DNA from: Mytilus trossulus
Lineage: Eukaryota
Length of the DNA stretch: 64,000 nucleotides
Direction of reading: 5' to 3'
Assembly (NCBI RefSeq): GCF_036588685.1
Contig: NC_086379.1
Coordinates: forward strand, 48,484,001 to 48,548,000
Within the stretch, counting starts at the first letter, position 1. Every line of letters starts with the position of its first letter. The position numbers and the translations under genes were made by a program. Positions 1,123 through 39,431 of the stretch are shown here, one piece after another. Below the pieces are notes generated by a model. That model saw nothing but the letters and a program-made list of their open reading frames with translations, was not told the DNA's origin and ran no database searches.

Positions 1123-1347
1123 CTGCGTTATCCTTCGTTTTCGTTCTTCCAGTTAAGTGGGTAGCTTTCAAACACTCTGGTAGTCTTTTTGCTAGAGCTT
1201 TTGCAGACGCCCTTGTTTTAACGAATACAATAAATCTTGAGTCCTCTTTTAATATGTAATACTCCTGGACAAGTGTGCGTATTATTTCATTAACATCAGG
1301 GTTACTTTCAACATCATGTCTCATCTCGCGTAGCACTGATGTTACAT
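1123..1347 (-). CDS. RLR exon: Hel2, motif IV
   Basis: ESNPDVNEI...DSRFIVFVKTRASAKALA...ATHLTG; CAG/GTAAA boundaries. Confidence 0.88.
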
Positions 1348-4300
1348 CTGAAACAGGAGTCCTTTTTCTAATATTCATTCAATTGCTAAATGATTTCCTA
1401 ACCCTTTAAAACTAGTGAACTGAACTAGTTAGCAATAGCTACTGTGGTACAGTTTGTAAAGCAATTTGAAAACTGTAAAATAACTCTGACGTTGAAGGAT
1501 TTAGCATGATTTACTTCGCCAAATTTGTTAGATACAAAAGTAGTTTACTAATAATAAATCGAGTCTTTAAAATCTTTTTGTAACAAGCACATAATATAAA
1601 TCAGGGTTATAATTATTCTCTGGGTAATTGAAATGATCTGAAAAAACAAAAAGGGAGTTTGAACTGGATGCGTCACGAGGATTTAAATTTCAATATATTT
1701 ATCTTAATGCTAAGATTTCGTGAAATGCTATTGAGTGGTTCCAGAGGAGTTGAGATGACAAGAATGGGGACTGACAAACGGACGGATTCAAAATCATTTT
1801 AACCTACGAAATTTGTATACTAGTCAACAAAAGAAACGATACACGACTTTGAAATACAATTTATCAAAAAGTATTAAATATAAATCAAAATGAGATATAG
1901 TGCATTATTTTGAAAAGCTTTCATTTGCAATGTATGCACATATGATAGTGAATATCAAAACCTGTCGAAAAGTAACTAAATCCCGTTTAAACGATCAAAG
2001 GATGGAGAATATATTTCCATGGTCTTTAAGTATAACTACCTTCAATATTGGTCCTATAAACGGAAGACCTCATCTTTAATTTGAAACAAAAGTCTTGTGG
2101 CGTTTCTTTTGTTGACTAGTATATAAACAGAAAACAGGTGATAAACTAATGAAGTATTTACAGATATCTCGAATCTGATAAAAAAATATACTTGCCTTTT
2201 AGTGCATCTATAATTTGTCTTTCTTGTATTGTATTTGCTTGCTGGCTTTCATCAAATAATTGTCCATGTGCATGAGTAAGCAAATCAGTAACAAGTGCAA
2301 TGTCAAGTAATGAATTCATCTCAAGAGATTCAACGTATAACTGCAAAGACATCAGAAACGAAAAAAGGTGAGAGGATTTTTCAACTTGTTTCTATAGTTT
2401 TAAGAGTGCATTTCTATCTAACTAAAGATTTGTAAACGTTGTGTGTCGTTTGTTATAGTTTGTAAAACGTTACAAATGAAGAAACAAACGCATCGTTCAC
2501 TGACCTTGTTTGAACTGTCAAAAATGTAAACAAACTTATTACGCGGGAAAATACCTTCTGTAGAAGATGTTCTAAACACACAAGACTTCTGTGTCTGCTG
2601 TTGTGTTTTTTTTTATTTTGGTCGGGTTGTTGCCTCTTTGACACATTCCCCATTTCCATTCTCAATTTTATTCTGTGCATATTCAGTTTTTACGTCCTCA
2701 TCAGATGAATGTAAAAAAGCAGCACCGAAAGGAGATACCTAAAAAACCTAAATTTAAGAAATTATTGACATTGCTATGAGTTATGCGAATCAGGAGTGTA
2801 TCTCTTTTTCTTTTGTCAGTATCAACCTTTTGTAAGTGGGAAACATATGAATAATTACATAATTGATTCAATGTTTAAGTTAGAAAGAAATACAGCATTT
2901 GTACTAACAACAGACGGACGACAAACTGTAAAAGCATTTTTAGCGAGTGCATAGTGTGTCAAAGCTTGTGCAATCTTTGTAAATTTATGTTAGAATCAAA
3001 TGATCTATAGTCGCCGTCAGCTGAAATTCGTAGCGGTTATCAATTGAAATAATCTAAACTATCAACCACGTTCACTCGAGATATAGTTTTTCACATTCCA
3101 TTCATAAATCGCAAAAAGAAAAACCACTACTGACCTACCTTTTAAGTGATTGCACTGTGATAATCCTGACCTTCACATTTTCCAAGACTATTTTCAATGG
3201 TGGAATCCGCCATTGTTTTTTCCGGAAGTGTTCCCCTGGAGTTCAATTTCATAACATTTGCATAAAGAGATGTATTTATAAAGGTTACTCGGGAACACGT
3301 GTATTTGTTTACTTTTAACACGTGTGTTTAAATCAAAACATGTTTATGTTTAATTTGATTGGACCATCAGTAAGTTATTACCGGTTTAAGTTATATCAAT
3401 CATGATAACTTCATGCTAGAATTTTAGCGCTAAAATTATAATAAGATATCTAGAATTGTCATTCGAGGTTCGCCTATCCGACAGAAAGGTTCGTTTTTTC
3501 TTAAATCGCCACTTGGTAAAATGTCCGAATCTTCTCCACGTCTGGAATTGAATGAAGACATACTACTCGAAGGAGATAATAGTTTACCGCCACCTAATAT
3601 TCATAAAGCAGCTGATAAGTCGTCTGATTTGGTAGATACTGTAGAGCTTTTTAAGACAATTTTAGACAGCAAGTTAGGTGAGTTGAAATCTGAACTCATA
3701 CAAGAACAAGATTGCCTTAAGAGAAAAATTAAGGAGGACGTCACTCTAAAATTTAAGGGGGAAGGAAACAGAATTCAGTACACCTTTAACGAGGAATTAT
3801 TAGACACTGTTAATAAACTTTCAAAATTCATCCCTAACTCCAATACTCAAGCCTATAGATTAGTTCTTGACATAACTGATAAGATCAAAAGCCGTAATAA
3901 GAAAATACGCATAGCTGATGCTTCCCCTACTGGTTGGGGAACCGTTAGGGAATACGAATCCAATGCCGTGGCTTCAGATTCTGAAGATGAGAGAAAGATA
4001 CGACAAGCTGAGACCAGAGCTATCCGTACCTCCAAGGAGAAGTCAAAATCTCGCCAGCAACCTTACCCTAAAAATCCGCCTCGTCAACAACCTGCGGAAT
4101 CTTATGGTAACCCTGCTTACGCTCAGCATTATCAACGTAATCAGCAACAGCCCTTTCGTGGGAGCTTCGCAAGGCGTGAGCCTTGCTCAATCGACACGTG
4201 CCACTACTGCAAGCAACAAGGCCACTGGAGAAAAAACTGTCCTCTTCTCGCCAGTCTCAGGTCATCCAACAGCAACTCCACAACCTACCAGAAGTAGTAA

Positions 4301-7300
4301 AGTAGGGCCTGAACGTCACTCTCCAGTCATTGTGAATGATAAGTATTTAGACACTATTAATGACCAATTTTCTACATGTTTTGTTGATAACGATTATATA
4401 GAATCTTTTTTAGATCAAGTTCAATATTTTGAAAATTGTCAGTCATATGATAAATTTAAAGGGGTGAAAGGTAGATTAGCTTGTCATGTAAAGTATTGGG
4501 AAAATATAGGTGCTTGTCCTTTTGTGCTTGATACAATAAAAAATGGTTATGTTATTCCATTTATAGATACACCTTTTAAAATGTACCACAGAAATAATAG
4601 ATCAGCACGGCAGAATACTGAATTTGTCACAAAGTCAATTGAAGATTTAGTTCAAATAGGTTGCGTAATTAAAGTGCCTTTTCAACCATATGTGGTAAAT
4701 CCATTGAGTGTTGCTACTCAAAAGTCCGGTAAGAAACGACTTATTTTAGATATGAGTCAATTGAATAAACACATAAAGCGCGAAAAAATAAAATTTGAGG
4801 ATTGGAAGTTAGCTATACAATATTTTGACAAAGATATGTATCTGTTTAAGTTTGATTTAAAATCTGGTTATTTTCACTTAGACATATGCTCACAGCAACA
4901 GACTTTCTTAGGTTTTCAGTGGGAAGGTCAATTTTATTGCTATACTGTTTTAGCTTTCGGAATTACTACCGGTCCGTACATTTTTACTAAATGTTTGAGG
5001 CCACTAGTAAAATTTTGGCGTGGAAACGGTATAAAAGTTGTTTTGTATTTAGATGATGGATTTGGCATGAGTCCAGATGAAAATACATGTAATGAGCAAT
5101 CGTCCTTCGTAAAAAGGTCTTTGATTGATGCTGGTTTCCTTATTAACGAGGAGAAGTCTGTTTTTAAACCTGTTACCGAGTTAGAATGGTTGGGAATAGT
5201 TTGGAACTCGAAAGAATACAAATTATCTATTACTCAACGTCGAGTTGACGATTTGATTTTCTCATTGAATGTCATTTTGGCTAAATTTCCCTATGTTACA
5301 GCTAGATATTTAGCTCAGGTTGTAGGTAGAATTATTTCTATGACTCCCGTAATCGGAAATGTGGCTAGAATTATGTCAAAGTTCTGTTACATGGAAATTG
5401 AAAGTAGAATTGGGTGGGATATTCCCATTACAGGGTACAAACCCGTCGAGGTTTTATCAGAGTTAAAGTTCTGGTTAGAAAATGTCACCATGATTAACTA
5501 TCGTAATTTATGTCATTACAGTAAATCTTCTGTTGTCATATACTCAGATGCTAGTAATATTGCCGCTGGTGCATACACCGTTGAATTAGAAAATAAGATT
5601 TTCCATAAGATGTGGACATGTAGTGAAACGGTACAAAGCTCCACATGGAGAGAGCTGAAAGCTATAGAGTTGGCCCTTTTTTCTTTTAAGAATAGTTTCA
5701 CAGGAAAAACTATAAAGTGGTTTACTGACAATCAAAATTGTGTCAAAATTGTTAATTCGGGAAGTATGAAAGAAAATCTTCATGTTATAGCAAAATCTAT
5801 TTTTTCATTTTGCATTCAAAAAGGAATATCAATTGACATTCAATGGATTCCCAGAAAAGAAAATGAAAAGGCTGATTATATCAGCAAAATGGTTGATTTC
5901 GAGGACTGGGGAGTCACACATATATTTTTCAATTTTTTAAATGATATGTGGGGTCCTTATTCGATTGACAGGTTTGCAAGTGTCGAAAATAGAAAAGTTA
6001 TGAGATTTAACTCCTTATTTTGGCAACCTGATTCTGAAGCAGTTGATGCATTTTCTCAAGTTTGGACCAATGAAAATAATTGGCTAGTTCCACCAATTAA
6101 TCTTGTGATACGATCGATTAAACACATTATAGCTTGTAAAGCTCGAGGCACGTTAGTTGTGCCTAAGTGGATTTCTGCTGCATTCTGGCCTTTGATATTC
6201 GATAAACATCTGATTTATCAAGATTACGTAAAAGATGTTATTGTGTTTAAAAATACTGATGGTATTTATAAGCAAGGTTCGAATAAGAATACGATATTCG
6301 GAATTGAACCGTTTGGTTCGCAAGTTTTGGCTGTTTTGCTAGATGCATCTTAGACATGGCCCTAATATATATAGATATATTTTAGCAGGCATGGTCTGTT
6401 TGTGACATGGCCCTAATATATATATATATATATTGTAGCAGGCATGGTCTGTTTGTGACATGGCCCTAGTATATGTATATTGTAGCAGGCATGGGTGTTT
6501 ATGTTGACATGGCCCTAGTATCGGTAATGATATTGTAGCAGGCTTGGTTTTTTATTTGACATGGCCCTAGTATCTATAATGATATTTTAGCAGGCATGGT
6601 AATTTGTTTTTACAGTTTATGGCCCTAGTATCTATAAAGATATTGTAGCTGGCGTTGAAATATTTGAATATATATTATATTTTACTGTGTATAGAAATCT
6701 GAAATATGCTAATAATTCGTCCTCTGTATATGTATATAAAATGTTATTGCAATTTTACGTTTTTCAGATATTTTTTCAGTAGGACATTGGTCAGACTTTA
6801 ATTCACAAGTTGCCTCTAATAATGATCTCAGCAGTTTGTTCAAACAGTTACCAGAATTCCTTCTTTCGTCCAAGGCTGCGAGTACTCAGAAGAAATATAG
6901 ATATGCCTTCAATTCATGGTGTAAGTGGACTAGTCAATATTCTTTTTCACCATTGCCAGCATCTCATTTACATATTTCTTTATATTTAATTCATTTGTCT
7001 GAAACTGCAAAATCGGTTTCAAAATTAAATGATGCTTTTTACGCCATAAAATGGGCACATAAATTAGCTGGCGTTGCTGATCCCAGTGAAAATAATCTAG
7101 TTGCATCTGTTCTTGAAGGGGCTCATAGAAAAATAGGTCATTCAGTTGTCAAAAAAGAACCTATCACACCACATATTTTGAAAAATATTGTATGTAAATA
7201 TGCTAATAATACTTGTAATTTAAAAGATGTAAGAATAGCATGTATGTGTTTATTAGCCTATGCTGGCTTTTTACGATTCTCCGAGTTAGCTAACTTGAGA

Positions 7301-10300
7301 AGGTCTGATATACAGTTTTCCCCTACTTACCTTACACTTCATTTAGTCAAGAGTAAAACTGATGTATATAGGGAAGGGAAAGATGTTGTCATTTCAAAAA
7401 CAGGGAATATTACATGCCCGGTAGATGTACTTCAGCGTTATCTAAAGTTAGCTAACATTCCTGAAGAATCGAATGATTTTATTTTTAGATCTATTTGTTA
7501 TTGTAAATCTTTGAATATATACAAACTTAGAAAGAGTAGTCATATTTCTTACACCAGAGCCAGAGAGTTATTGTTATCTGCACTTGACAGTTTAGGTCTT
7601 GATAAAAAACAGTTTGGCTTACATAGTTTGAGGTCAGGAGGAGCTACTGCCGCGGCAGAAGCTGGAATAGATGACCGGTTGTTTAAGAAACACGGGAGAT
7701 GGAAAAGTGATAAAGCCAAAGATGGTTATGTTAAAGAGAGTATACTCAACAGATTGTCAGTATCTAAGAATTTAGGCTTGTAATATATATTGTTTGTCCC
7801 CCCTTTTTCTTTATGTCCCTTTCTTTATCAATCGAAGCTTTCTGTGCTGTCGGGGCGAGCTGATAACCAAAAACTGTGTTGAGTTTTTACTTTGTAAATG
7901 CTTTATGTTCGTTTGAAGTATTGAATAAGAACATAAATGTATTTATAAAGGTTACTCGGGAACACGTGTATTTGTTTACTTTTAACACGTGTGTTTAAAT
8001 CAAAACATGTTTATGTTTAATTTGATTGGACCATCAGTAAGTTATTACCGGTTTAAGTTATATCAATCATGATAACTTCATGCTAGAATTTTAGCGCTAA
8101 AATTATAATAAGATATCTAGAATTGTCATTCGAGGTTCGCCTATCCGACAGAAAGGTTCGTTTCCCACCCACCCACCCTTTTTATTAAGACTTCATAGGA
8201 ATGTGAATCAGTATGTTATGTAGAAAATAGTTGATAAAATACATGTATGTAAATCGAAATGATTTTTTCTTCAACTTATAGAACATTTTTCTATTGTAGA
8301 TTGTGTTTATATGTGATGGCAGCGGTCGATGACAGCAAATTGGACATTTGTTTATTGTTTATAATAAAAAATAAGCTTTCTGTGCTGTCGGGGCGAGCTG
8401 ATAACCAAAAACTGTGTTGAGTTTTTACTTTGTAAATGCTTTATGTTCGTTTGAAGTATTGAATAAGAACATAACGGGAAACCGTATCACATCAATGAAA
8501 AGAACATTTCAGGAAACTGCGTAAATGACGAATTTCACATGTAAACAAATGATCCTCATAGAAACGAAGATGGCGGAATTACAATGGAAAACATTCTGGA
8601 AAATGTGAAGGTCAGGATTATTACAGTGCGATCACTTAAAAGGTAGGTCAGTAGTGGTTTTTCTTTTTGCGATTTATGAATGGATTGAGAAAAACTATAT
8701 CTCGAGAGAACGCGGTTGATAGTTTAGATTATTTTTACCGATAACCGCTACGAATTTTAGCTGACGGCGACTATAAACGTATTGTTGATGGACCGTTTGC
8801 ATAGTCTGTGTTAGAAGGTAAAGCACTTTAAATTTGTCATTTTATGGTCTTTTATAGCTTGCTTTATGGGGTATTGTTTTCATTTGCAAACGGTGACCTA
8901 TAGTTTAAACAGAGCTTCTAGTTTAATCTGCTTTTACCATCATTAAAATGGGAGAAGTGGACGGATACTTCTAACAAAAAAGGAGATGGTTGGCAATAGT
9001 AAAAGGTTAAACATTTTGTGCAGGTCTTCGACAAATCATTTGACATGCAAATGATTAATTTCAAACAGTTGGCTAACAGGACGTAAATAGTTTGTCGTAC
9101 TATCAGGGCCTTTCCGAAATGAGTGGGTTCTTGTCATTGTCCTCTTATTCTCTGTTCTCTACTTAAGACTGTACAATAAATATTGTAAATGTTTCTTTTG
9201 GAATTCCATATTTTTGCCGTATTTCATGTTGATTTGTCTTATTTTAAGAATTTCGTTAATCTGGTTCGATATGCATAGACGATAATTTGATGTATGTTGT
9301 AGTAAAACAAATGGTAAAAATAAATGTCTGAGGAAGAAATATTATCGTTGATAGTGTATATGATTGGAACCAATAGTCGAGCAAGTCTTTCATCAAAGAG
9401 CGCCGGGTACACTACTTTTGTTGGTGAGGTTCAAATTGGTCAGTATTTACTTTTACTTCAATTTTATTAGTTGTGCTTAGACTTTTCGTTATTCCCATTT
9501 TAAAGATATGTTGTGAATTTTCTTCATATTCCAGCTTGTTATAAATATCAATATACCTCCAAAAGTCTTAGGCAAATGTGTATTAGGCGAGGCAAATCTG
9601 CGTCGATTAACATTACACTTTCTGTTTTTCGTTGTGTTTCCTTTATCCAATGTACATATCTTCTTTCTCTTTTATTAATTGGTGGATTTTCTAGGGCGTT
9701 TAACAGAGCCTTTGTGTCCAATCCATTTACCATAAGAAATGAACTCACTGAAAAGGAAAATCTTTGTACTTTTTATTTAAAAATTATAAAATAACATTAT
9801 TATACTAACTTACAAATTTATAATGAAACTGAAGTAATTGAAAAGATAGGTTCCTTAAATTATCAATATTAGGGCCTGTATGCATAAAGCTACTTAAGTT
9901 AAGATGTTCCTTAGTAAACACTTAAGTTAAGGAAACTCCGCCCTTTTTATCAAAGTGGTATGCATAAAAAATCTAAAACTGAGTATTCTTAAGTAAAATC
10001 TTAGTTGTTTTAAGTCACGCCCACAAAACTTAAGTGGTATACATAAGACTCCTTATGCTAAGGAAACCCCTAAGATAACACTTAAGTCTAAGGTACCTAT
10101 AGAGCTTCCTTAAGTTTTCAAAAAGAGTTAAAAATCAATCGAAAGTATGCGTATTTTGCAAAACATAAATAGGTTACCTACAATTGAATTGATTAATACC
10201 TATATCAGTTATTAAATACTATTTATTCGTTTATTTATTGCTAAATATTAAAGATCGTCGTAATGTTCTTAAAATCACGTATAATCAACATCAAGAGATA

Positions 10301-13300
10301 CCAGTGGGTAGTTGTATACTTTTTCCCATATCTCGTGTGTATACCGAAAAATACTCAGTTTTTATACTCATGTAATTCATGGATCTATTTTTCTTTTGTT
10401 AACTCTGTCCGAGCACGTTTTCTAAATTTTTAAAATACACCGCTCGGGTATCATTTGTACCCGTAAGTTAAAACAGAATTAAGGAATGAAGAGAGGGCAT
10501 GCAAAACCAAATTTCTATAGCATGTGTGTGAGGTTTTTTTGTGTTTTTTTGTTTTTTGTTGTTTTGTTGTTGTTGTTTTTTTTGTGGGGGGGGGGGGGGG
10601 GGGTCATTTAAATTTGAATTTAGTTTTATTTTAAAGATGTAGAGCATACCCTAATTTTTTTCACGTACAGGGACAAAATCGAAATGTTTTTAAGATGGAT
10701 TTATTTCATAAAGGGTGATGGTGGACATAGACCTCCATTTTGTTGAAACAATAAGTTGATTGTTTATGGAATCACTGTTACGGCAGTCAGAAGTCCCCAC
10801 TGCTTCACCCCATGAAATTCGAAATTTTTTTTTTTTTATATATGATATATATTACGGTTTCGAAAATATTGCTAAGTACATTAAGATGTTGAGAATAAAC
10901 TTTCTGTAATAATTTGTTTTAGTAAAGATTGTAGGTTTTTTTCACAAATGCCCTAGTTTGTATATGGATTCCTGGGGGGGGGGGGGAAACTACCCTCCCC
11001 CCTTTTGTTTTCTAAAAGGGAAGTGAAAAAAATGTTAATTTCACATCAAAATAGATTTTTTTTATCAAACCATAAGCATACGTAATCAAGGGGTCTGGAA
11101 AGAGAGATGTAAGCGCATAATAAGCTGAAATATTAGTAAACATTTTATTGAAAAAAAGGATTTTGTAAAATGATTTGTTTTGTGAAAATATGTGCTTACA
11201 ATGCTACCCTTAGTCTTGTGCTATGCCATTGAAACCTTGATCATGTTTTGTTAGAGTTTAAAACATACTGTTGTATCCAGATTCATTAAAAGATAATTAA
11301 AGATTAAGTAGAGGATATTCTTGGATCACCGAAATATTTTTTTTCCAATGCTCATCCGTCAAAACATCAACCTTAAAAAGCGTTGTCTTATATGCACCAA
11401 TTGTTCCTCATTATACTATGTTACGTTCTATTGAACTGTTTTACATACCAATATCAATGTAACCCCAGCTCTTTAAAATAAAAGCATGCATTGATCAATA
11501 AATTTAAATAATCATAACAAACTTTAACACGGATGAGTACATGTGATGAGCTAGTATATATAATACGGTAATTAGAGAAAGGTTAAAATTTAAGTATTCC
11601 TTAGTTCAGTGAAGACTTAAGTAAGTTTATGCATACCGCTTAAGAATTTTACTTAACTAAGGAAATTCTTAGTGAAATTTAAGTTTAAGGAATACTTAAG
11701 TTAAGACGTTTTATGCATACGGCCCCAGATGTATAAGATATTTCGTTATACTTATTCAACTTGAAGAGAAACAAGTAAAACCATCGCTTCATTAATGAGC
11801 GTAAATGTAGACAATTTTAAGATGAAAGAAAAGTCGCGTTCCCAAAATCTTTTTTCTATATTGGGAAAATATTAAAAACAACAAGAATACTTAATTCAAA
11901 ATAATTTTACATTAATGTTCATATACTAGTATCTCACTGACCAAAGTTGAATCTAAAACCAATCAAATGCAATCAACCTTATAAGAACATTGTTGATAAA
12001 GATAAAAATACATTACGAAAATTGGAATAAGGAGTGTGTTTAAACAATGATTGACCAAATGAACATTAAATGTTTACTTCCTATATCAGTATCCGTTTAT
12101 GTCCACACACGTTAACATCTACAATGTATGTGAAAAAATCATAACAATACTGAACTCCGAGGAAAATTCAAAAAGGAAAGTCTCTAATCAAATGGTAAAA
12201 TCAAAAGCTTAAACACATCAAAGACTTCAAAGGAATGGATAACAACTGTCATATTCCTAACTTTGTACAGACATTGTCTTATGTAGAAAAGGGTGGATTT
12301 AACCTGGTTTACATTTCCTGTGTGAAAATAGCCATATTCGTGTATGGTAAAATCTTCTTAAACGAGCTGAAACCTCAATTTCTTAAAACATTTGAACGCC
12401 AAGATATAATTAAACAAGGAAAAATTCATAATACGCTGTTCTTTCATACATAGTGCTTAATAATTAGGAAAACACCACTGCTATGTACCTGTTCTATCAC
12501 TAAATACACGTTCAACATCCTGTATGGCTTTGAGAAGAATATCTTGTACAGGGTCTTGTTGTCTTTTGGTGGAACAAATTGGAACTAAGTAAAATAAAAT
12601 AAAACATTATCTTATGGTAGTATGATCATTAATGTAACACTAGTACCTTATATGTACATGCTGATGTCGTCGATAAAAAAAAAACAATGTGCACATACAT
12701 ACTTTAAAAATAATTGCAACTTTTTTTTAATTTGTTTCAATAAATTACACATTAAATTTTGCAATAGTTTCATAAATGCTTTAAGCCCTCAATGATACAA
12801 ATTCAGAATCGTTTAGGTTATAAAAATGATAGCCATTAACGTTTAAGTGTTCTGAGAACATTGTGGCTTATCCTATGTTCCCCTAAAACTTAAATTGTTG
12901 GCAAGTTTCTTTATTGATATTTGGAAATTCGCGAGGCTCCTCCTATGTTTTATTGTGTAACGTGTGTTATGCAAGTTTGTGATAGAAGTTGTTTTCACGA
13001 AGGCCTGTATGCACGATTGTACCTAATACTTTAATTTGATCATCCATGCGTTTCTTTTCATTTTTTAGAATACACAATGTTTGGCATACAAAGTTACTAG
13101 TTATCAAATCCACAATAATGAAAATAAACTCATCATAGATACCTGGATTGAAATTCGGTGTTTGCGCCAGACACGCGTTATGTCTATAAAAGATTCATTG
13201 GTGACGCTCGAATCCAAAAGAGTTAAATGGGCCAAAATAACGTATGAAGTTGAACAGCACCAGGGACCAAACATTCCTAAAGGTTTTGCCAATTAAAGCT

Positions 13301-16300
13301 AAATTTATCTATTCCCAAAGTTTTGTTATTAGTTAATTTATACTTATGACCATATAACTGATAAATTATACCAACACAGACGTGCTGACTACTAGGTTGG
13401 TAAGCAGCTTAAGTGATGGTTTGTTTAAATTACATGTGCATAGATGACAAATATTTTGATAGAAAAATAAGATAAATATAAGATAGAGCTTAGATTCCGT
13501 TGTATTATAGTACAGTTTTATTATACCATTACAATATTTATTTTTGGGCACAATCAAATTATACCGTTTGTAGGTGTTGATGAATATTCTAACAGTTCTT
13601 TTTCGTGTTTTATGACAACTGACAGCTTAGAAACATCTAGGTTTGCCATTAAGCTTTGCAAATGTTGAACAGCAGAAAATCCGTCGTCTGCCCTATTCGT
13701 TCCTGGTGAGGCAGTTAGACCTAAAATCTAAAATGTAAGTGTAAATACTTGTTGTCAAAATGAAACCAAATGGAAAAAAATAGTTCTGGAATACTTTCCT
13801 TGTGTAATTATCTATCTTATGTTCATCATATGGATGTAATGCATGTAAGTCAACATTGTAAGACTAATTAAGCAATCGTTACTAGGCATGATAGCTAAAT
13901 GATAACCCTTGACAATTGAAAGTGGAAAGTCTAGAGTTGATATATTCAAGTAAATGATCACCTCAAAAGTACCAATCTTATAGTGATCTTCTAGGCACAT
14001 CCAATAGCTTTGCTGGCATTGCTCCCAATAAAAATAACAACACACTTATGACATTAGTATACAAGATTTTCTATCTTTGTAACATGAGTAGTGTTTGTTG
14101 ATTGCATTGTTGTTGGGTTTTTTTGTAATAACATCTGGTGACAAACTATTCATACAGATTGACTGATTTGAATGGTTGGTAGTTAATTAACTGATTTTGC
14201 ATAATGTCCAATTTGATAAATTGATTGGCGATCTTCGAATGTGGAATCACCAAATGGGACTTATAACCGAGTGTTTTAAGTAACACGAAGGGTGCCACAT
14301 TTCCTAATCCTTCCAAGAGAATCTTATATAACCCCTATATTTGGTTTAAGTTAGTGTAAATCAGTATTTAGGGTTTTGTCTGTGTCGTGTTCTGATGGCT
14401 GTTTGTCTTTCGTCGTTTTCTTTATAGCGTTGTCAATGTGTTCTGCCTTTCCTTCAATAAACATGCGAAAAATGAAACACACATAAACGGATAATTATTT
14501 TCCTTATTTATATTTTTCAATATATAATAAAAAAATTGAGATATTGTTTTACCAGGAAGGTTGGGCAAAAAAGCATTGCGAAATTGTTCATAAATTTAAT
14601 TTCCTGTAAAGAAAAAATGATGTACTAGTATCAAAAAGAACAAAATACTTCATTACTATCTTAATTTGTCTTAACTTAATACAAATTCTTTGAAATAGCA
14701 TACCTATACAAGTTTAAATAACATTCGGTCGTCCCTCCGAAAAAATGTCATCAAGTGACTTAGCGTAATTCGATGATTAGTTTTAGAAACAAAAACAAGC
14801 TACGTACTATACTAACGATAAATAAATTCCTATTTCAAACTTCGTTTGAACTTTTACAAATGAATTCATGATGGACAAGAAAAAACATTTTTGTAACTCA
14901 ATACCTTCTTTGCATTTTACTCTTTTCCTTAAATCCAGATTTTAACTTATTATTTTAAAACAACTGGCAATTGCTGTTTGATAAGGTAACTCTAAATGCA
15001 TTGAATGTTGGTCAATAGTTTTTTAACATTCACCACTGTAATAGTACTACCGTTAATATTAGTTTAAATTGGACAATTATAATTTAACAAACCTGTGGGA
15101 TTTTCCCGGACTTCGTTTCAAACTTGTGTCTTCTGTAGTAATTCATGATATGATTGAAAGCATTTCGTCGCACAACATGGTGACATTCGTCCAGAATAAT
15201 CAGCGTCAGAAGATCCATCGAGATTGTATTTTCCGACTTTTCGTCCAGGTGATTATAAAGTGATTGTGGAGTACAGAAGAATAAAGATACACGTTGTATT
15301 ATGGTTGGAAAGGAGTCACATTCGCCCTCTAAACTTGCGTCCCATTTATAAATCTTTCCCTAAAATGTTAAATATGTTACAATATTAAATAATTACATTA
15401 CATGTATGTTTCACTATAATACGTTATTCTGATTGGGTAACTGTACATCACGTGTTATTCCTTAAACAATTGTATTATTCAATAAAAATTTGCATTCATG
15501 ATAAAATGATGTCCCATAAAAAAGTGCACAGGTGAATAAAATAACAGAATTTCTGAAATTCGTGTTTTCACGATTTTAGATAAAAAAAAAATGAATGATT
15601 CTTTTTGTAACTTCATAGGGTTGTAAAAGCGTTGACCGGCGCACATTTTTAGAATAAGCGCTTCTGCGCTTCATACAAAATGTACTTCGGTCAACTCTTT
15701 TACACCCTAAGTTACAAAAAAAAGCATTCAATTCTTAAATAAAAAATATTACTGCATTACACAAATCTTATTTTCTTAAATAAAAAATATTACTGCATTA
15801 CACAAATCTTATTTCTCATTATCAAAATATCGTCACATGAATTAATTCTCGTAATCAAAAATGTCTTCACATGAGTTATTTCTCATTATCAAAATATTGT
15901 CGCATAACTCATTTCTCATTATCAAAATATCGTCGCATAACATATTTCTCATTATCAAAATATCGTCAAATGGCTTATTTTGATTCTCAAAATATGGTCA
16001 CATGACCTTTTTTTAATTGATGCATTAGTATATTCTATACAAATAATCAATCAGAAAAGAAACTCTATGTGTATTGGTATTTTCTTTAAATGGAAATTTC
16101 TACAATGCATGCAATTCAAATGTTGCAATTATTAATATCTTCAATTGCCTATACCTGGAAATGTAGGTCTGTAAAAGTCCTGCATGCTCTGCTGTATTGC
16201 TGTTCTAACAGAACATTTGTCTTATTTATGAAAACGACTTTACCTACAATAGGAAAAATCATCCAGTATGTTAAAGTTTCACAACATGAACAAAATGATA

Positions 16301-19300
16301 ATAAATTTGAGTTTCACAACAACATGAACAAAATGATAATAATTTGAGTTTCACAACAACATGAACAAAATGATAATAATTTAAATGTCACAACAACATG
16401 AAAACAAGAGGCTGTCACAACGAAAGCAAACTGGATTTATTAATATTTATTTGTGTCCTGCCAATATCCCAAGAACCATAACTGATGAACGGTAAAAGTG
16501 AAAATCGTGACATCCATTTTGTCATCAGTATCAACATATTAAAATTTGAAAAGCTTAGGTTGAATGGTTCATGAGTAAATACAACAACATGAATGGAAAC
16601 GCCATTTTTCGATCTTTCAACAACCATAACTCCTGAACGGTAAAAGTCAAAATCGACATTATTGAACTTGACCTCCATTTTCTCATCAGTAACGACATAT
16701 ACAAATTTGAAAAACTTTGGTTGAACAGTTCATGAGTAAATGCACGGACATGATTGGAAAAGCCATTTTTCAATCTTTCAAGAACCATAACTGATGAACG
16801 GTGAAAGTCAAAATCGTCATTATTGAACTTGACCTCCATTTCGTCATCAGTAACAACATATACAAATTTGGGAAGCTTTGGTTGTGCAGTTCATGAGTAA
16901 ATGCACGGACACGACTGGAAAAGCCATTTTTCAATCTTTCAAGAACCATAACTGATGAACGGTAAAGTCAAAATCGTCATTATTGAACTTGACCTCCATT
17001 TTGTCATCAGTAACAACATATAAAAATTTGGGAAGCTTTGGTTGTACAGTTCATGAGTAAATGCACGGACACGACTGGAAAAGCCATTTTTCAATCTTTC
17101 GAGAACCAAAACTCCTCAACGGTAAAAGTCAAAATCGACAATATTTTAATCTTGACCTCCATTTTGTCATCAGTAACAACATATTAGAAATTGAAAAGCT
17201 TTGGTTGAACAGTTCATGAGTAAATGCACGGACACCACTGGAAAAGCCATTTTTTAATCTTTCAAGAACCATACATGTAACTCCTGAACGGTAAAAGTCA
17301 AAATCGTCATTATTGAACTTGACATTTTGTCACCAGTAACAACATATTTATATTTGGGAAGCTTTGGTTGAATGGTTCATGCGTAAATGCACGGACACGG
17401 CTGGAAAAGCCATTTTTTAATCTTTCAAGAACCATTACACTCCTGAACGGTAAAGTCAAAATCGTAATTTTTTAACTTGACCTTCATTTTGTTGTCTGTA
17501 ACAACTTATTGAAATTTGAAAAGCTTTGGTTGAATGGTTCATGAGTAAATGCACGGGCAACATTTGCTTGTCGCCCGCCCGCCCGCCATACATCCCTAAA
17601 TCAATAACCGACATTTGTCAAAAATCCGGTTAAAAATGATATTAATTGACATTTCAGCTATACTTCATCATATTAGTTCAGTTGTTTAACAATAGGAATG
17701 AGAAATTTATTGCATTAAGTTTAGAACTACATGTGTTGCGAATTAGTTTCTGTCAAGTTTAAAGATAATGTATCTTACCATTCGGGTATTTGATTAAATG
17801 GTCTTCAATTATATGATATGCAACATAAGTCTTTCCTGCATTGGTTCCAGCACAAATAATAGTGTTTTGACCTGACACAGCTATCTCAACAAGCTCTTCT
17901 TGATATTTTCGTAGTTCAATTAAACTTGGTTTCCTTTCTATAAGTTAAAGCAGAAAACAGTATAATTCTATTACTAATTGCAAAGCAATATTAACCGAAA
18001 AAAATCTACAAAATTCGAAGCAAGCTTTCATCATATCATTTTGTGATATTATATTTGTTGATGGGAGTTTTATATCATTGTCATGTTTGTTGGCATATAT
18101 CCCACATTCCCTCAGCTAGTGATAATATGGAAGTCAATTGTAAGAACATTTTAAGGACGCTATCACGAGTTATATACTCTGGAATGTCTGTGTAACACTG
18201 CTATGTTCTACTTTTCATAACCAAATTTCTATCCTCGATTCTTTAGAGATTACACCACTGAAATACATTCATTACCAAATGCATACTTTCTTTAGCAACA
18301 AGATCTGTTTGAATTCTTGGGTACAAGATCGACCCAGATTTTTGGGGGATTTGGGGTTGCTCATCTTTAGTTTTCTATATTAGATTTGTTGACTATTGTT
18401 AGTCGGCGTTTTTTGTTTTTACCATGCTGTTGTGATTCCGTCTCCAACTGCATAATGAGTTTGAATGTCCCTTTGGTGTATTCCACCCCTCTCCTGCAGA
18501 AGAAATTATGATAATTAGAATATGATACATGTACCCACCTGTGATTGATAGGACACAACAGCTTGTTTTACTCCCAAGTTTTAGTGTATATATGCCACTA
18601 TCTTCATTGGTAGATTCTAAAATGACAAGCTTGTAGACCTGGACATGTATACCATCGATTATATCACTTAAACATTCTTGTCTGCTTTTCTGGTCGTATA
18701 CAATTTCCTCATCATTCTTTAACCATTCTGCTATAAACTTTGACCCACCAACAATACATTGTAAGGTCACTGTATTGCCTTCAACACATGTTGTCTCCTG
18801 CAAAGGTTTGATGAAAACAACTGCAATGCAAAAAAAAAGTAGCAATTGATAAGCAGTCAAATCATTCGCAAAATAAGCAAAAATTATTTAAAATACAATT
18901 AAGATCCAGTATATTCAAACTCTAAAATTGCATCATTCTGTTGTATTTTTATAGAATGATTTAACTTTCTCTAATATATCTTGCTATATAATTTCTATGA
19001 AGGCAATGCACATTTATTGTAACAAATGTGAAACACTGAGGTGTCACTAATAAAGCTAGAACTGATCGAATTTCTGAGGAGAAGAGGTCAGCCTGTGGTT
19101 TCTTGTGGGGTTTTCGTTGATCAATATTAGTTTAATGTATTGTGGCGGATCTTTAATTTGCTTTCTTTGTCAAGCTTTTTTTTATAACTATTTTAACTAG
19201 AGGTATTTTCTAGAGAGAAAAACACAGTATTATCTTCTATTCACGTGGAAAACTTAAATAAAATAAAATGATAACGTTAGTGTGTCCGACTTAAATTACT

Positions 19301-20809
19301 TAAATTGCATTGATTCGGAACCCTCAAAACCAAAAATGTGTAAGTCAAGGATAAACAAGTACTTAATTTTGTCAAATATTACCACAGTAATACATACAAT
19401 TAAATTTTTGAAAAAAATATAACAACATTGTAATACTTACCGTTTTCAGTATCTTGCTTTTCTGATATACCCATGGATGTACAACAAAAATAAACAATGT
19501 TCATATACGGTCTTTGTTGATGATATAGTGAAAATAAAAAATTCGTTTCACTAGTAAAGAAAGTACTCATGCGCATTTATCTGTGCAGTTGATTTTCTGC
19601 TCTTTTTCTTAAAACAGGGTCTCACGTACTGTGAAAAATATGTGTTGTATTACATGTATAATATCTACATTTTGAATACTGGTATTATAATGGTATTGTC
19701 TTTTCTTGTTTGTAGATTTCTTGTACTATTCTATTGGTTTCGATATCGTTTTCTTTGGAATCGTAATCATATCTGATGAAATAAAATGCAGTCCTTTGAG
19801 ATAAAGTATGAAAAGTGTCGCAAAATGTGAATTGTATCATTCTTTCGTTATCATGTGTAAAAACACGATTTGTATCAAGAATGGCCTTTAACAATTATAA
19901 TAAAAATATAGACGGTGTGGCATTACTGTCTTATAATCCTGGTACTTTTGATAACTATTTGGGACAATTCTCTGCTGATGGCTGTCTAGTTGTTAGACGT
20001 CATAGAGCATTCAAGGAGTAAAATGGATAATTATTATTTTATTTACCTAATATGTATCTATTACGATTTCGATAAAGAACCTTGCCGCCTAAAGTCTTGG
20101 TCCATAATTTTGACGTTCTCAATATCAACTTGGATCTGACGTTTGACGGCCATAAAATTTATAAACCAAACTTACTCGCAAGATACTCCTTTAATTGTGA
20201 AATCTGTTCTTCATAGTCAATACCTCTGCTTTGCCATTCTTCAATTTCTTTCAAGTACTTTCGTTCAGTATCCTCATCCATACTGCAAATTCGCAAATCT
20301 TCAACCTCCAAAACAAAATCATTGTTCTTTTTATGACAAATGACCTGTAATCTGCTTGCAATTGCTCCAAATTCATCAAAATATTCCTGCAATTCCTGAT
20401 CGCTGACCTCTGTGTTTCCTCTGTGTATTATCTTATTTCTTCTTCTTCGGCATCTTTCAAGGTCATCACCTGTCTTCATTTGATGAGGTCGAGGGTCGGT
20501 TCTAGAATCCCACCCATCTGTTGGTTCCAAGGTAGAATAATGAATGTTTCTCAGAATTGTATAAATCAGTGGAATATCAAAATTCTTGTAAGATTCAGTG
20601 TTTACCGCTTCTTTAATTTTTGTCCAGTCTGATGATTTAAGACGGCAAAATAGATGAGGATTTGTTCTGCAACTGTAATCAATATTTTTAGGGTTTTCAT
20701 AATATAATAAAACTTCCTGTAGAAATCTGGGTATCAGATTTTGTGCAGCATGGCCAAGACGAGCGTAGTGTGTCTTTGTAGATACGACAGAACCACCAAC
20801 TGAGGCCAT
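1123..20809 (-). CDS. RIG-I-like receptor-type DExD/H RNA helicase with N-terminal DZIP3-like HEPN and Ig domains (11 coding exons in window, ~757 aa, continues past position 1)
   Basis: Exons 20809-20176, 19461-19441, 18820-18539, 17937-17779, 16243-16155, 15359-15093, 13727-13565, 12584-12489, 9747-9557, 2340-2196 and 1347-1123 join in frame with GT(GC)-AG sites. Motifs: LRKYQ, AGTNAGKT, TPQ, IILDECHH, ILGLTASPG, FVKTR. Motifs V/VI and the CTD are not in the window. Confidence 0.85.
1818..2121. mobile_element. Tc1/mariner-type MITE (~300 bp)
   Basis: TIR TACTAGTCAACAAAAGAAACG / CGTTTCTTTTGTTGACTAGTA, flanked by TA on both sides. Confidence 0.8.
2196..2340 (-). CDS. RLR exon: Hel2i, ending at a GC splice donor
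   Basis: LYVESLEMNSLLDI...IIDALK; donor AAG|GCAAGT keeps frame with the next exon. Confidence 0.75.
3270..3496 (+). repeat. Split direct repeat A1 (227 bp)
   Basis: Identical by eye to 7937-8163. Confidence 0.95.
3521..4297 (+). CDS. gag: Gag-like protein with CCHC zinc knuckle
   Basis: RNKKIRIADAS..GWGTVREYE..ASDSEDE block typical of DIRS-order gag; CHYCKQQGHWRKNC (CX2CX4HX4C). Confidence 0.9.
   Translation: MSESSPRLELNEDILLEGDNSLPPPNIHKAADKSSDLVDTVELFKTILDSKLGELKSELIQEQDCLKRKIKEDVTLKFKGEGNRIQYTFNEELLDTVNKLSKFIPNSNTQAYRLVLDITDKIKSRNKKIRIADASPTGWGTVREYESNAVASDSEDERKIRQAETRAIRTSKEKSKSRQQPYPKNPPRQQPAESYGNPAYAQHYQRNQQQPFRGSFARREPCSIDTCHYCKQQGHWRKNCPLLASLRSSNSNSTTYQK
3918..6353 (+). CDS. pol: Pol: reverse transcriptase + RNase H + Dam-like methyltransferase domain (true start uncertain; 5' part overlaps gag)
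   Basis: KRLILD, FDLKSGYFH, LAFGI, YLDD; RNase H YSDAS, RELKA, TDNQN, RKENEKAD; MT-like IDRFAS, DAF, NNWLVPP. Confidence 0.95.
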   Translation: MLPLLVGEPLGNTNPMPWLQILKMRERYDKLRPELSVPPRRSQNLASNLTLKIRLVNNLRNLMVTLLTLSIINVISNSPFVGASQGVSLAQSTRATTASNKATGEKTVLFSPVSGHPTATPQPTRSSKVGPERHSPVIVNDKYLDTINDQFSTCFVDNDYIESFLDQVQYFENCQSYDKFKGVKGRLACHVKYWENIGACPFVLDTIKNGYVIPFIDTPFKMYHRNNRSARQNTEFVTKSIEDLVQIGCVIKVPFQPYVVNPLSVATQKSGKKRLILDMSQLNKHIKREKIKFEDWKLAIQYFDKDMYLFKFDLKSGYFHLDICSQQQTFLGFQWEGQFYCYTVLAFGITTGPYIFTKCLRPLVKFWRGNGIKVVLYLDDGFGMSPDENTCNEQSSFVKRSLIDAGFLINEEKSVFKPVTELEWLGIVWNSKEYKLSITQRRVDDLIFSLNVILAKFPYVTARYLAQVVGRIISMTPVIGNVARIMSKFCYMEIESRIGWDIPITGYKPVEVLSELKFWLENVTMINYRNLCHYSKSSVVIYSDASNIAAGAYTVELENKIFHKMWTCSETVQSSTWRELKAIELALFSFKNSFTGKTIKWFTDNQNCVKIVNSGSMKENLHVIAKSIFSFCIQKGISIDIQWIPRKENEKADYISKMVDFEDWGVTHIFFNFLNDMWGPYSIDRFASVENRKVMRFNSLFWQPDSEAVDAFSQVWTNENNWLVPPINLVIRSIKHIIACKARGTLVVPKWISAAFWPLIFDKHLIYQDYVKDVIVFKNTDGIYKQGSNKNTIFGIEPFGSQVLAVLLDAS
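6353..6654 (+). repeat. Six-unit ~52-bp hairpin repeat array between pol and YR
   Basis: GACATGGCCCTARTAT-(variable)-ATATTKTAGCAGGCATGG units at 6353, 6404, 6457, 6506, 6558 and ~6617. Confidence 0.9.
6768..7783 (+). CDS. Tyrosine recombinase (no ATG at the N-terminus; probably entered through a splice acceptor at 6766-6767)
   Basis: GFLRFSE, SKTD, HSLRSGGAT, HGRW..AKDGY catalytic motifs. The frame is open upstream of the TTG at 6836 (DIFSVGHWSDF..) back through ttttacgtttttcAG. Confidence 0.92.
7835..7936 (+). repeat. Split direct repeat B1 (102 bp)
   Basis: Identical by eye to 8373-8474. Confidence 0.95.
7937..8163 (+). repeat. Split direct repeat A2
   Basis: Copy of 3270-3496 directly abutting B1. 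Confidence 0.95.
8373..8474 (+). repeat. Split direct repeat B2 (element 3' end)
   Basis: Copy of 7835-7936. Confidence 0.95.
9557..9747 (-). CDS. RLR exon: Hel2i
   Basis: ORF 9548..9748 (..RRYVHWIKETQ..HICLRLLE); strong ttttccttttcAG acceptor, GT donor. Confidence 0.8.
9872..11725. mobile_element. Non-autonomous TIR element, PIF/Harbinger-like termini
   Basis: GGGCCTGTATGCATAAA.. / ..TTTATGCATACGGCCC with CTTAAG-rich subterminal repeats; TSD not clear. Confidence 0.65.
12489..12584 (-). CDS. RLR exon: start of Hel2i insertion domain
   Basis: VPICSTKRQQDPVQDILLKAIQDVE; AG/GT boundaries, phase 1-1. Confidence 0.75.
13140..13330 (-). repeat. Degenerate copy of an interspersed repeat with a hammerhead-like core (same family as 32270-32610)
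   Basis: Reverse complement reads GAGCGTCACCAATGAATCTTTTATAGACATAACGCGTGTCTGGCGCAAA, matching 32422-32560. Confidence 0.55.
13565..13727 (-). CDS. RLR exon: motif III
   Basis: ILGLTASPGTNRA...HLQSLMANLDV. Confidence 0.92.
15093..15359 (-). CDS. RLR exon: motif Ic and DECH box
   Basis: FFCTPQSLYNHL...LTLIILDECHHVVRRNAFNHIMNYY...KIPQ. Confidence 0.92.
15605..15717. repeat. Long imperfect inverted repeat (hairpin)
   Basis: TTGTAACTT..AGGGTTGTAAAAGCGTTGACCG / CGGTCAACTCTTTTACACCCTAAGTTACAA. Confidence 0.7.
15810..16005. repeat. ~30-bp minisatellite
   Basis: TTCTCATTATCAAAATATCGTCRCATRA repeated about 6 times. Confidence 0.8.
16155..16243 (-). CDS. RLR exon: helicase motif Ia
   Basis: GKVVFINKTNVLLEQQYSRACRTF; TAG/GTATA boundaries. 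Confidence 0.85.
16404..17635 (+). mobile_element. Non-autonomous Helentron/HINE-like element with ~160-bp internal tandem repeats (~7 units)
   Basis: AACAAGAG start, repeated ACCATAACT..GAACGGTAAAAGTCAAAATCG.., GCCC microsatellite near the end; related reversed copy at ~58365-58915. Confidence 0.7.
17779..17937 (-). CDS. RLR exon: Q motif and Walker A
   Basis: Manual translation ERKPSLIELRKYQEELVEIAVSGQNTIICAGTNAGKTYVAYHIIEDHL; AG/GTAAG boundaries. Confidence 0.9.
18539..18820 (-). CDS. RLR exon: immunoglobulin I-set domain
   Basis: VFIKPL..EGNTVTLQC..EWLKN..YKLVI..EDSGIYT pattern; ttgcAG acceptor, GT donor, phase 1-1. Confidence 0.85.
19441..19461 (-). CDS. RLR 21-nt microexon (KKQDTEN)
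   Basis: tatatcAG|aaaagcaagatactgaaaacg|GTAAGT; phase 1-1, in frame. Confidence 0.55.
20176..20809 (-). CDS. RLR exon: DZIP3/hRUL138-like HEPN domain plus coiled coil
   Basis: ORF 20159..20809 with FDIPLIYTILRN, PTDGW and DDLERCRRRRNKIIH (RX4H). Donor GTAAGT after 20176 (phase 1). An acceptor TTCCAG just upstream of the ATG implies a 5' UTR exon. Confidence 0.8.
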
Positions 20810-21519
20810 GTTAAATAGTTAACGTCATTTCTCCTGGAATATAACGCATAACTAAACAATAAAGCATGACTATTTATAAAAAAAAAGTAGAAATTCAAAA
20901 TAAAATATGCAAGGGAGCAACCATTTAACTTCAAAGAGAGGGGGAATTACATTTTGTCTGAGACAGACGCTACATGTACCAATCCAAAAGTAAAATCACA
21001 AAAAAAAACGAAAATTCAGAAAGAAAAGTCCCTAATCAAATGGCAAAATCAAAGGCTCGTACACCTCAAACGAATGAATAACAACTGTCAAATTCCTGAC
21101 CTGGTACAGGCCTTTTTTATGTAGAAAATGGTGGGTTAAATCTGGTTTTAAAGCTAGCTAAACCTTTCACATGTAGGACATTCCCATAAAATTCCGTATT
21201 ATTGACAACGATGTGTGAACAAAACAAGCTGACATAACAGGTAAAAATGTCAAAAATAGTGGTACAGCAGTCATCGTTGTGTTATAATCCTAATCATTAC
21301 GTACAAAAACAAACAAATATGTCAACAAAGACAAAACAAAAAGGCATACAGACAAAGTTCCAAATATGTAATGGATTCCGAAGCAACACAAAACACCTTA
21401 CAAATATAGATTTATATGGTCTTCAATGCATTGTTCCACTGCTAAATTATTTATTCTACTTTCAAGTACACCTGGTACAATAAAAAACTTGATAATTAAT
21501 TGTTCAAATAATACTTTTG

Positions 21520-22420
21520 AAAATAGTGGGATTCATTACTTTTGAAAGAACCTGATAAATTGCATGCTAATATTCGTGATTTTGAATCTTTTTAAAGTTT
21601 TGGTTTTTCTACACTTGTTACCACATTGTCTCATGTTTTTATAAAGAAAAATCACACACCTGATTAAATGGGCATTACAAATTCCGAATGCGAATACATA
21701 TGTTCAACTCTTTAAGGTCATTTTAAGTAACAAACAAAAGAACAAAAACAATTGGACATGCTTTTGATACTATAATCGCCCCTGAATTTTTATTAGATAA
21801 CAATTGTGTTCGCTTTAGAGATTCCGTATATCATCATGTTATTGGAATTCCAATGGGGACTAACTGTACACCACTTGTTGCGGACCTGTTTCTGTATTGT
21901 AATGAGTTACAATTAATGACTAAAATCAGCAAAGACCCATCGAACAACATCAGATACAAAATTTAACAATACTTTTATATATTCGGATGATATATTGGCT
22001 CTCGATAATGACGACTTCAGTATGTATACTAAAGAAATTTATCCTGTTGAACTAACTTTAAATAAAGCTAAAACTAACAATGAACACTGCCCTTTTCTTG
22101 ATCTTGATATCTAAATCATTAATGGGAAGCTTAATACCAAAGTGTATGATAATACAGATGATTTTTTTTCATTTCATATCGTTAATAATCCATTTTTAGA
22201 TGGTGACATTCCCTTGATAACATTTTAAAGTGTTTATAAATCTCATCTTGCACAATTCGCTCGTTTATGTAACTATGCATTAGATTTAAGCGAGAGAAAT
22301 TTATGTATTAGTGGAAAATTATTACACCAGGGTTTTCGAATTGCACAAACTAGTTTTGTCATCGAAATTTTATCATCGGTACAAGGACATCCTTCGTAAA
22401 TACAATTCAATATGCAGACA
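21520..22420 (+). pseudogene. Degenerate Penelope-like reverse transcriptase fragment
   Basis: Frameshifted GIPMGTNC.PLVADLFLY, DDIL, PFLDLDI, PFLDGDIP motifs. Confidence 0.75.
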
Positions 22421-22540
22421 TATTCATTTGATGCATACATAATCTTTCAATCAGTTTAATTGAGGTCTGAAGCTGGCATGTCAGCAACTGATACTAGTAG
22501 TAGTCCTTTGTTAATGTATGAACCATGTACTATATATATT

Positions 22541-23750: not shown

Positions 23751-23859
23751 TATGTTACAATGTCATTTTGTTTACTTTTTTTTTGTTATCTATTCTGACA
23801 TCGGACTTTTTTTTAAACTGAGTTTTACTGTGCGTATTGTTGTGTATTTTTTCTACATT

Positions 23860-24117
23860 GGCTAGAGGTATAGAGGTGGTTTGAGACCTAAAAAAACATG
23901 TTTAACCTCACCGCATTGTTGCGCCTATCCAACGTCAGGAGCCTCTGGCCTTTTTTAGACTTGTATGTTTTTTATTTAAGTTTGATTTAAAGATTTCGGG
24001 CGTGGGATTTTCTCGCTGCATTGAAGACCCGTTGGTGGCCTTTGGTTGTTATCTGCTCTTTGGTCGGGTTGTTGTCTCTTCCACATACCGGTATTCGACA
24101 TTTCCATTCTCAATTTT
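23860..24117 (+). repeat. SINE-like interspersed repeat (copies also ~55013-55310, partial ~2590-2670, reversed ~24945-25005)
   Basis: Shared GTCAGGAGCCTCTGGCC..CATTGAAGACC..GGTCGGGTTGTTGTCTCT..TTTCCATTCTCAATTTT. Confidence 0.65.
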
Positions 24118-27100: not shown

Positions 27101-27336
27101 CCACGCAAATAACAACCATTTGACAATTAAATTAGACCAAGGACAAAAGTGAAATGTTTAAAGGAAACTACAGAGCATATACATCTGATACAAAAAATGA
27201 AGTTTCCAGATCTTCTTCTTTAACACATAAATCTAGCTAGTATGGATAGAAAGAGACAAGCGTTATCTCTACATTCATTATATTTCATTAAGATTATAAT
27301 ACATGTATAATATTGGTAAATTAAGGTCGAATATTT

Positions 27337-39399: not shown

Positions 39400-39431
<32 letters not shown>

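Follow-up and report, generated by a model that had tools for sequence, protein, structure and literature searches.

The DNA analysed here, called the window below, is a stretch of 64,000 nucleotides from the mussel Mytilus trossulus (NCBI RefSeq assembly GCF_036588685.1, contig NC_086379.1, positions 48,484,001 to 48,548,000). It is AT-rich animal DNA from an assembly of 1.3 Gb, and it contains most of a gene for a RIG-I-like receptor (RLR) in which a nuclease-type HEPN domain precedes an immunoglobulin (Ig) domain and the helicase. The original prediction had joined eleven exons in frame; all of them are present on the minus strand from 20809 to 1123 and form a stop-free frame of 757 codons, the introns between them being GT-AG in nine cases and GC-AG in one (after 2196). 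Extension to the left, suggested in the same prediction as a way to find helicase motifs V and VI and the C-terminal domain, located two further exons just outside the window (G000:C7:48483622-48483455 and 48482663-48482050), which supply both motifs, the pincer and the RIG-I C-terminal domain. The complete frame of 13 exons comprises 3054 nt and 1017 aa without an internal stop, and its domain order, read directly from the DNA like the open frame itself, is DZIP3-type HEPN, long helix, Ig I-set, RIG-I-like helicase and C-terminal domain.

All exons lie on the minus strand. Exon 1 (20176-20809) starts with the ATG and encodes HEPN at about aa 10-185 and an amphipathic helix at aa 179-210, as indicated by the PF18738 profile, an AlphaFold2 model and RNA contigs. 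Its R-N-K-I-I-H motif (20423-20440; R124 and H129) is predicted to contribute one of the two halves of a composite RNase site. The contigs place the acceptor of this exon near 20833, with an untranslated exon further upstream. A phase 1-1 linker micro-exon of 21 nt follows as exon 2 (19441-19461), recognised from the frame and from contig depth, and exon 3 (18539-18820), a symmetric phase 1-1 exon, encodes the Ig I-set domain. The helicase opens in exon 4 (17779-17937), where sequence and phmmer place the Hel1 start, the Q motif (LRKYQ) and Walker A (AGTNAGKT). Motif Ia is found in exon 5 (16155-16243), motif Ib and Walker B (DECH) in exon 6 (15093-15359), which matches Pfam ResIII above the cut-off, and motif III (TAS) in exon 7 (13565-13727). 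Hel2i begins in exon 8 (12489-12584), continues through exon 9 (9557-9747) and ends in exon 10 (2196-2340), the exon with the GC donor, after which Hel2 and motif IV (FVKTR) appear in exon 11 (1123-1347). Exon 12 adds motifs V and VI, and exon 13, identified by a profile match, carries the pincer, the C-terminal domain and the stop.

Each part of the predicted architecture was recovered by profiles or motifs. The HEPN exon scores 48.1 bits against Pfam HEPN_DZIP3 (PF18738; cut-off 27, E 1.3e-12), which is also its first match in the Atlas (0.96). The Ig exon reaches 35.5 bits against I-set (PF07679; cut-off 23.7), and the C-terminal domain 65.1 bits against PF11648, above the cut-off, at C7:48482092. 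The helicase motifs stand in frame at residues 321 (Q), 342 (Walker A), 452 (DECH), 489 (TAS), 724 (FVKTR), 781 (V) and 811 (VI), together with Hel2i, so that the product has the Hel1, Hel2i and Hel2 build of a superfamily 2 DExD/H helicase with its motifs undamaged. The integrity of the ATPase motifs and of RNxxxH is a direct observation. Furthermore, the annotated Mytilus edulis protein P0002, 90% identical to the product of this gene, matches duck RIG-I by phmmer with E 4.7e-63 over residues 325-1010, and solved MDA5 and LGP2 were matched too. From the frame, the HEPN and Ig matches, the helicase motifs and the match of P0002 to solved RIG-I, the locus is, at the level of sequence, an RLR gene. 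Dicer was rejected as its identity, with RNase III and PAZ absent from the Pfam scans of P0002, P0005 and P0008; the name "Dicer" attached to P0006 is no more than a label from its source. In the zinc site of the C-terminal domain, CxxC is kept and the second pair is reduced to a single cysteine in the Mytilus HEPN-Ig clade, which therefore lacks the full set of four. The Death-type protein P0126 likewise has one cysteine in the second pair, and two are found in P0131, P0151, P0139 and P0219.

The AlphaFold2 model of exon 1, with a mean predicted local distance difference test (pLDDT) of 89, is an all-helical bundle with a C-terminal helix of 32 residues; helix 113-128 carries R124 and H129 at its end, and an N follows the R, in keeping with the Rx4-6H pattern. 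The best match of this model in the VIA structural search was Csm6 (Z 7.7, root-mean-square deviation 3.4, 111 aligned), weak by itself for a helical bundle, and other HEPN entries gave Z 5.5-6.5, level with unrelated helical bundles. Prediction of a HEPN homodimer (residues 10-200, two copies, made without an alignment) scored 0.00 in both runs, a result that speaks neither for nor against a dimer, and the full-length AlphaFold2 model of P0002, built from 15 rows, is too poor for domain packing (pLDDT 58, predicted template modelling score 0.35).

The gene has no CARD, as had been noticed at the outset. The Pfam scan of P0002 returned none, all 35 CARD_2 matches of the genome fall outside C7, and an in-frame TAA precedes the ATG of exon 1 by 12 nt. 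Contigs from two runs part from the genomic sequence at 20832, 5' of this TAA, and join an upstream exon. An upstream CARD exon was ruled out by the CARD_2 genome scan, the TAA and these departing contigs taken together. With CARD directly seen to be absent, the tandem CARDs of the RIG-I/MDA5 signalling subtype are lacking. On C4, each of four matches to the C-terminal domain has CARD_2 12-28 kb upstream on the same strand, and these four CARD-linked RLR loci indicate that the HEPN genes exist beside canonical CARD-type RLRs. The prediction had further described HEPN and Ig as standing in place of CARDs. The absence of CARD was upheld, whereas CARD as the domain replaced is a loose description: the nearest sister helicases of the HEPN-RLRs in Mytilus, P0049 and P0126, show weak Death-domain matches.

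The locus is most likely expressed as one protein of 1017 aa, a reading backed by orthologs, by paralogs and in part by RNA contigs. The contigs, which are short, came from 4 runs of 3 studies (one library recorded as RNA, three runs guessed to be RNA) and were aligned to window positions 17600-27300, a range that avoids a 161-bp satellite and covers exons 1-4, with exons 5-13 and intron 9 lying beyond it. Exons were covered by contigs in four runs, one unique intron bin being empty in 4/4 and another in 3/4; the depth bin of exon 2 was covered in 4/4 runs, with flanking intron bins empty in 4/4 on one side and in 3/4 on the other. Among the contigs listed, alignment breaks off at the HEPN donor (20176-20177) in three runs, leaving 202, 4 and 39 unmatched letters. 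Splicing of exon 3 (Ig) to exon 4, where the helicase opens, is seen in one contig of the one library recorded as RNA; its identity of about 88% points to a relative or a paralog as its source. That a stray HEPN exon lies beside the helicase by chance was ruled out by the identical layout in paralogs and in four species.

Conservation of the gene within Mytilus is likewise seen directly, in full-length models with HEPN, Ig, helicase and C-terminal domain from M. edulis, M. galloprovincialis, M. californianus (RefSeq, several isoforms) and M. coruscus. Three paralogs are found 0.9 Mb away (C7:47.47-47.63 Mb), two in which this HEPN exon likewise precedes exons for Ig and helicase, and one with a different RX4H HEPN. 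RNxxxH is present in 33/33 HEPN-plus-helicase models examined, many of them isoforms or near copies and some of them paralogs of about 50% identity, so that the RX4H motif predicted to be intact is also conserved. HEPN identity is 59% to P0008 and 49% to P0037; in the same paralog comparison, Hel1/Hel2 show 58-60%, Ig 36-37% and the C-terminal domain 36-39%, which places HEPN near Hel1/Hel2 and higher than the other two. Against its nearest paralog in the genome, the HEPN exon has a ratio of nonsynonymous to synonymous divergence (dN/dS) of about 0.19, where dN is 0.37 and dS, at 1.98, is near saturation. At least 59 related HEPN matches occur in the genome. As judged from these sequences, the gene is a real, conserved and multi-copy RLR variant with a nuclease-type N-terminus. 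Near the RLR cluster, a pair of HEPN exons (C7:47659841-47667691; L010, L013) resembles the double-HEPN protein P0001, and the first exon of the pair has lost R and H.

A second HEPN type (RNFLAH) is carried in Mytilus by two different helicase paralogs, P0041 and P0044. P0041 (C7:47520982-47568691, L045-L049) joins this different RX4H HEPN to a TRADD-N-like segment, a Cys-rich region, Ig and an RLR whose motifs are altered to GQNAGKT and TASID, and the related models P0011, P0055 and P0056 hold both HEPN types in one chain; the TRADD-N-like segment of P0041 and P0044 is a lead only (0.87). Outside Mytilus, the survey covered the best 150 of 8987 representative matches with a profile that distant HEPNs could escape. 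Among these 150, the DExH motif was present in 134, two of which have HEPN by profile (P0035 and P0139), and one non-Mytilus HEPN-RLR was found, KAK3611678.1 of the freshwater mussel Potamilus streckersoni. It scores 83 bits against HEPN_DZIP3, has RNKIIH, and is 28% identical to the M. trossulus HEPN. In the tree, its helicase lies far from the Mytilus clade and is sister to a CARD-type RLR whose accession, KAK3611677.1, is adjacent. A single clade of Potamilus and Mytilus HEPN-RLRs was rejected with a P value of 6.7e-5 in the approximately unbiased test (p-AU), for which 20 rows were taken from the 58-row tree under a simpler model. The Potamilus HEPN-RLR would thus be of separate origin, a conclusion drawn from one gene model.

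Intron 9 contains a young nested insertion at 3006-8775 on the plus strand, antisense to the gene, recognised by Pfam RVT_1 and Phage_integrase and by its repeats. Its core, at about 3270-8474 (plus strand), is a tyrosine-recombinase retrotransposon of the DIRS/Ngaro type with split direct repeats (3270-3496 equals 7937-8163, and 7835-7936 equals 8373-8474, both at 100%) and, on the plus strand, a gag-like region (3434-4294), reverse transcriptase/RNase H (3915-6350) and recombinase (6740-7780). The retrotransposon looks intact and is nested within an inverted-repeat element of about 570 bp. At least seven other copies of the retrotransposon are present in the genome at 99-100% identity, the left part of the inverted-repeat element has at least 26 matches at 99-100%, and by these identities both families are young. 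Elsewhere in the window, the upstream neighbour (27340-33024, minus strand) resembles a CSKMT methyltransferase gene, and the M. edulis model P0010 fuses such a CSKMT-like gene with HEPN-RLR pieces, a chimeric model that reflects conserved synteny. A frame of 350 aa at 29353-30402 (minus strand) presumably represents the C-terminal part of a Penelope-type element with a GIY-YIG motif. A tandem array at 37444-47418, consisting of about five units of 1.98 kb at about 90% identity, each with 120-bp subrepeats, sits between exon reading frames at 36606-36977, 49314-49670 and 49926-50267 of a gene which we take to be short-chain dehydrogenase-like. A satellite-like repeat of 157-161 bp occurs in 6.5 copies in intron 4 (16508-17556) and in three copies at 58441-58913, and units of about 500 bp, direct and inverted, at 82-90% identity, fill 59040-63012. 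In L005, an isolated stop-free frame of 142 aa lies at about 4100-4520 (minus strand), about 14 kb downstream of the gene.

The mussel protein shares with vertebrate RIG-I, MDA5 and LGP2 the motifs Q, I, Ia, Ib and II-VI, Hel2i, the pincer and the C-terminal domain; it differs in having HEPN, helix and Ig where the vertebrate proteins have two CARDs or nothing, and in keeping three of four zinc cysteines. In OAS-RNase L, Csm6/Csx1 and Cas13, foreign nucleic acid activates an RX4H HEPN-type RNase through dimer formation. Those systems depend on a second messenger or on a guide RNA, whereas in the mussel the sensor and the predicted nuclease form one chain and no messenger is apparent. The HEPN-NACHT NLRs of bivalves and corals, as far as the accessible sources describe them, have the same DZIP3-type HEPN N-terminal to an oligomerising sensor NTPase. 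That sensor is a STAND ATPase with repeats and of unknown ligand; the mussel sensor is an RLR, which indicates double-stranded RNA (dsRNA) as the ligand.

Parts of this architecture are already in print. The M. coruscus protein CAC5414135.1 (P0003), 89% identical to the M. trossulus product, was described as McoRLR14, an Ig-type (L4) lophotrochozoan RLR, and discussed as a case of Ig grafting; expression of the Ig-type McoRLR12 was high in gut, and that of McoRLR5 and McoRLR13 in hemocytes (PMC8998645). In the searchable text and supplement of that paper, figures aside, HEPN does not occur (PMC8998645). HEPN is nevertheless present in at least 5 of the 19 M. coruscus RLRs, namely McoRLR8, 9, 11, 12 and 14, with 6 of the 19 examined; McoRLR5 is without HEPN, and the adjoining accession is a HEPN-only model. 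The source data of Figure 4 of a 2021 paper include, as a single table row, a Lingula protein (XP_013399073.1) with HEPN, coiled coil, TRADD-N, RLR helicase and C-terminal domain (PMC8195603). It resembles the mussel gene in having HEPN and RLR in one chain, parallels P0041 and P0044 of Mytilus with their other HEPN and TRADD-N-like lead, and differs, so far as that row tells, in lacking Ig. The same paper lists HEPN and RLR fusions as separate items, with no dsRNA-gated nuclease in the section concerned, and reports oyster proteins with HEPN and Ig-repeat N-termini, some of which end in a cGAS-like domain (PMC8195603). In the portions available, the HEPN survey gives fusions of DZIP3-type HEPN to TPR, RING, ankyrin, CARD, NACHT, DEATH and LRR, with no mention of RIG-I (PMC3710099), and later work covers HEPN-NLRs or cites that survey without an assay in the accessible text (PMC9646362, PMC8260672, PMC8662601, PMC9334734, PMC7773633). 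In this literature, as far as it was accessible, corals and bivalves have an expanded set of DZIP3-type HEPN domains for which RNase activity is predicted, trigger and measured activity being unreported. The literature search, to which subscription papers, figures and parts of the supplements of PMC8195603 and PMC3710099 were closed, found no paper on a HEPN-RLR nuclease. The original prediction had left open whether the architecture was published: with the M. coruscus counterpart in print as an Ig-type RLR and one Lingula fusion in a supplement, it is less unknown than had been hoped. In conclusion, the parts are known and public annotation shows the fusion, as does one supplement entry, while the mechanism appears to be unproposed in the literature covered.

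RLR helicases assemble on dsRNA, and HEPN RNases require two RX4H motifs in one site. The best reading of the gene, with a probability of about 0.5, is that it encodes a dsRNA-gated, MAVS-independent RNase whose HEPN activity is predicted. The helicase and C-terminal domain would clamp dsRNA and hydrolyse ATP, and neighbours on one duplex would pair their HEPN domains by means of the helix-plus-Ig arm. Two RX4H half-sites would then form a single active site, as in Csm6, RNase L/Ire1 and Cas13, and nearby single-stranded RNA, viral and host alike, would be cut, so that the virus is limited or the cell killed without MAVS. The HEPN-RLR would work alongside the CARD-type RLRs which the genome also keeps.

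Several observations weigh against this proposal, and some of them lend themselves to other explanations. RX4H retention is not special to the fusion, because most stand-alone HEPN paralogs keep the motif: it is kept in 25/28 aligned HEPN paralogs of the genome, most without a shown RLR link (30 loci were entered, of which one did not align and one was the gene itself). Foldseek, searched with the HEPN model, gave no match at E 0.001. Replacement of the third zinc cysteine in the Mytilus clade means that RNA sensing may differ from that of RIG-I. In the accessible parts of the sources, RNase activity of DZIP3-type HEPN is predicted from the motif and not measured (PMC3710099, PMC8662601). HEPN could instead be an interaction or RNA-binding module, not itself sufficient as a nuclease, that relays the signal when it pairs with other HEPN proteins of the genome, possibly completing an active site in trans, in the way that CARD and Death domains recruit adaptors. 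HEPN sits in the slot of the Death-fold domains of sister RLRs and, in the sources seen in part, of invertebrate NLRs; the many related HEPNs of the genome offer potential partners, and the sensor or RNase role of HEPN is left undecided in the available text of PMC8662601. This explanation is nevertheless unlikely, although it deserves attention, for R, N and H are all kept across paralogs of about 50% identity, as expected of catalytic residues, and inactive HEPN families are described, in the part of the survey available, as losing the motif (PMC3710099).

A further group of observations concerns the integrity of the allele. Public models split the locus into a HEPN-only protein of 216 aa (P0277), a middle of 439 aa (P0125) and an end of 376 aa (P0013), matching it at 99-100% with breaks at introns 1 and 9. 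No HEPN-to-Ig join occurs among the contig rows listed, and a search for the junction covered 16 proteins, seven of them Logan (unspliced-caller) entries that are single-exon pieces by reading or label and do not show the junction. The breaks coincide with two local lesions. In relatives the micro-exon measures 36 nt; its acceptor reads AT and not AG here, with a weaker in-frame AG 15 nt on, and intron 9 holds the recent 5.8-kb insertion. Because of the lost acceptor and the young insertion, the family might be real and this allele broken, or expressed as HEPN-only, Ig-helicase and C-terminal fragments, as HEPN-only models in two other species (P0279, P0282) and one RLR paralog with a stop at HEPN codon 99 and open helicase exons would also allow. 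Yet the 13 exons are free of stops and frameshifts with the micro-exon in or out, the frame staying open when exon 2 is skipped; a contig 98% identical to the HEPN exon departs from the genome exactly at the HEPN donor and runs 202 letters beyond; and the insertion is antisense and intronic. The three-way split is most likely an annotation effect, and an impaired allele is improbable. LGP2 has a regulatory role, and RNase L products amplify the signal. A CARD-less mussel helicase might similarly tune the signalling of the coexisting CARD-type RLRs, its HEPN trimming bound RNA only, so as to stop or boost the signal and not as a broad antiviral effector, and the diverged C-terminal domain would fit such a regulator. 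The helicase, however, belongs to a Mytilus clade beside Death-domain RLRs, far from vertebrate LGP2, and expansion to four genes with repeated HEPN grafting would better suit an effector, which leaves this regulator the most doubtful of the explanations.

Established roles of RLRs are those of a signalling receptor or of a partner to a separate nuclease, Dicer for instance. With fusions in Mytilus (two different HEPNs), Potamilus and Lingula, it is tentatively suggested, at somewhat less than even odds, that lophotrochozoans, both marine and freshwater, repeatedly built a one-protein equivalent of OAS-RNase L by grafting a HEPN RNase onto RLRs, an unrecognised class that would need neither MAVS nor a messenger. 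If the dsRNA-gated RNase is real, animals would possess, in an RLR equipped with a nuclease, a sensor-effector of a type familiar from bacterial defence, and the published Ig-type mussel RLRs, some of them expressed in hemocytes and gut, would have to be reinterpreted. Since dsRNA and ATP are a predictable trigger, one recombinant protein and one RX4H mutant would probe the activity of the family and its gating together, which makes the question of DZIP3-type HEPN activity testable.

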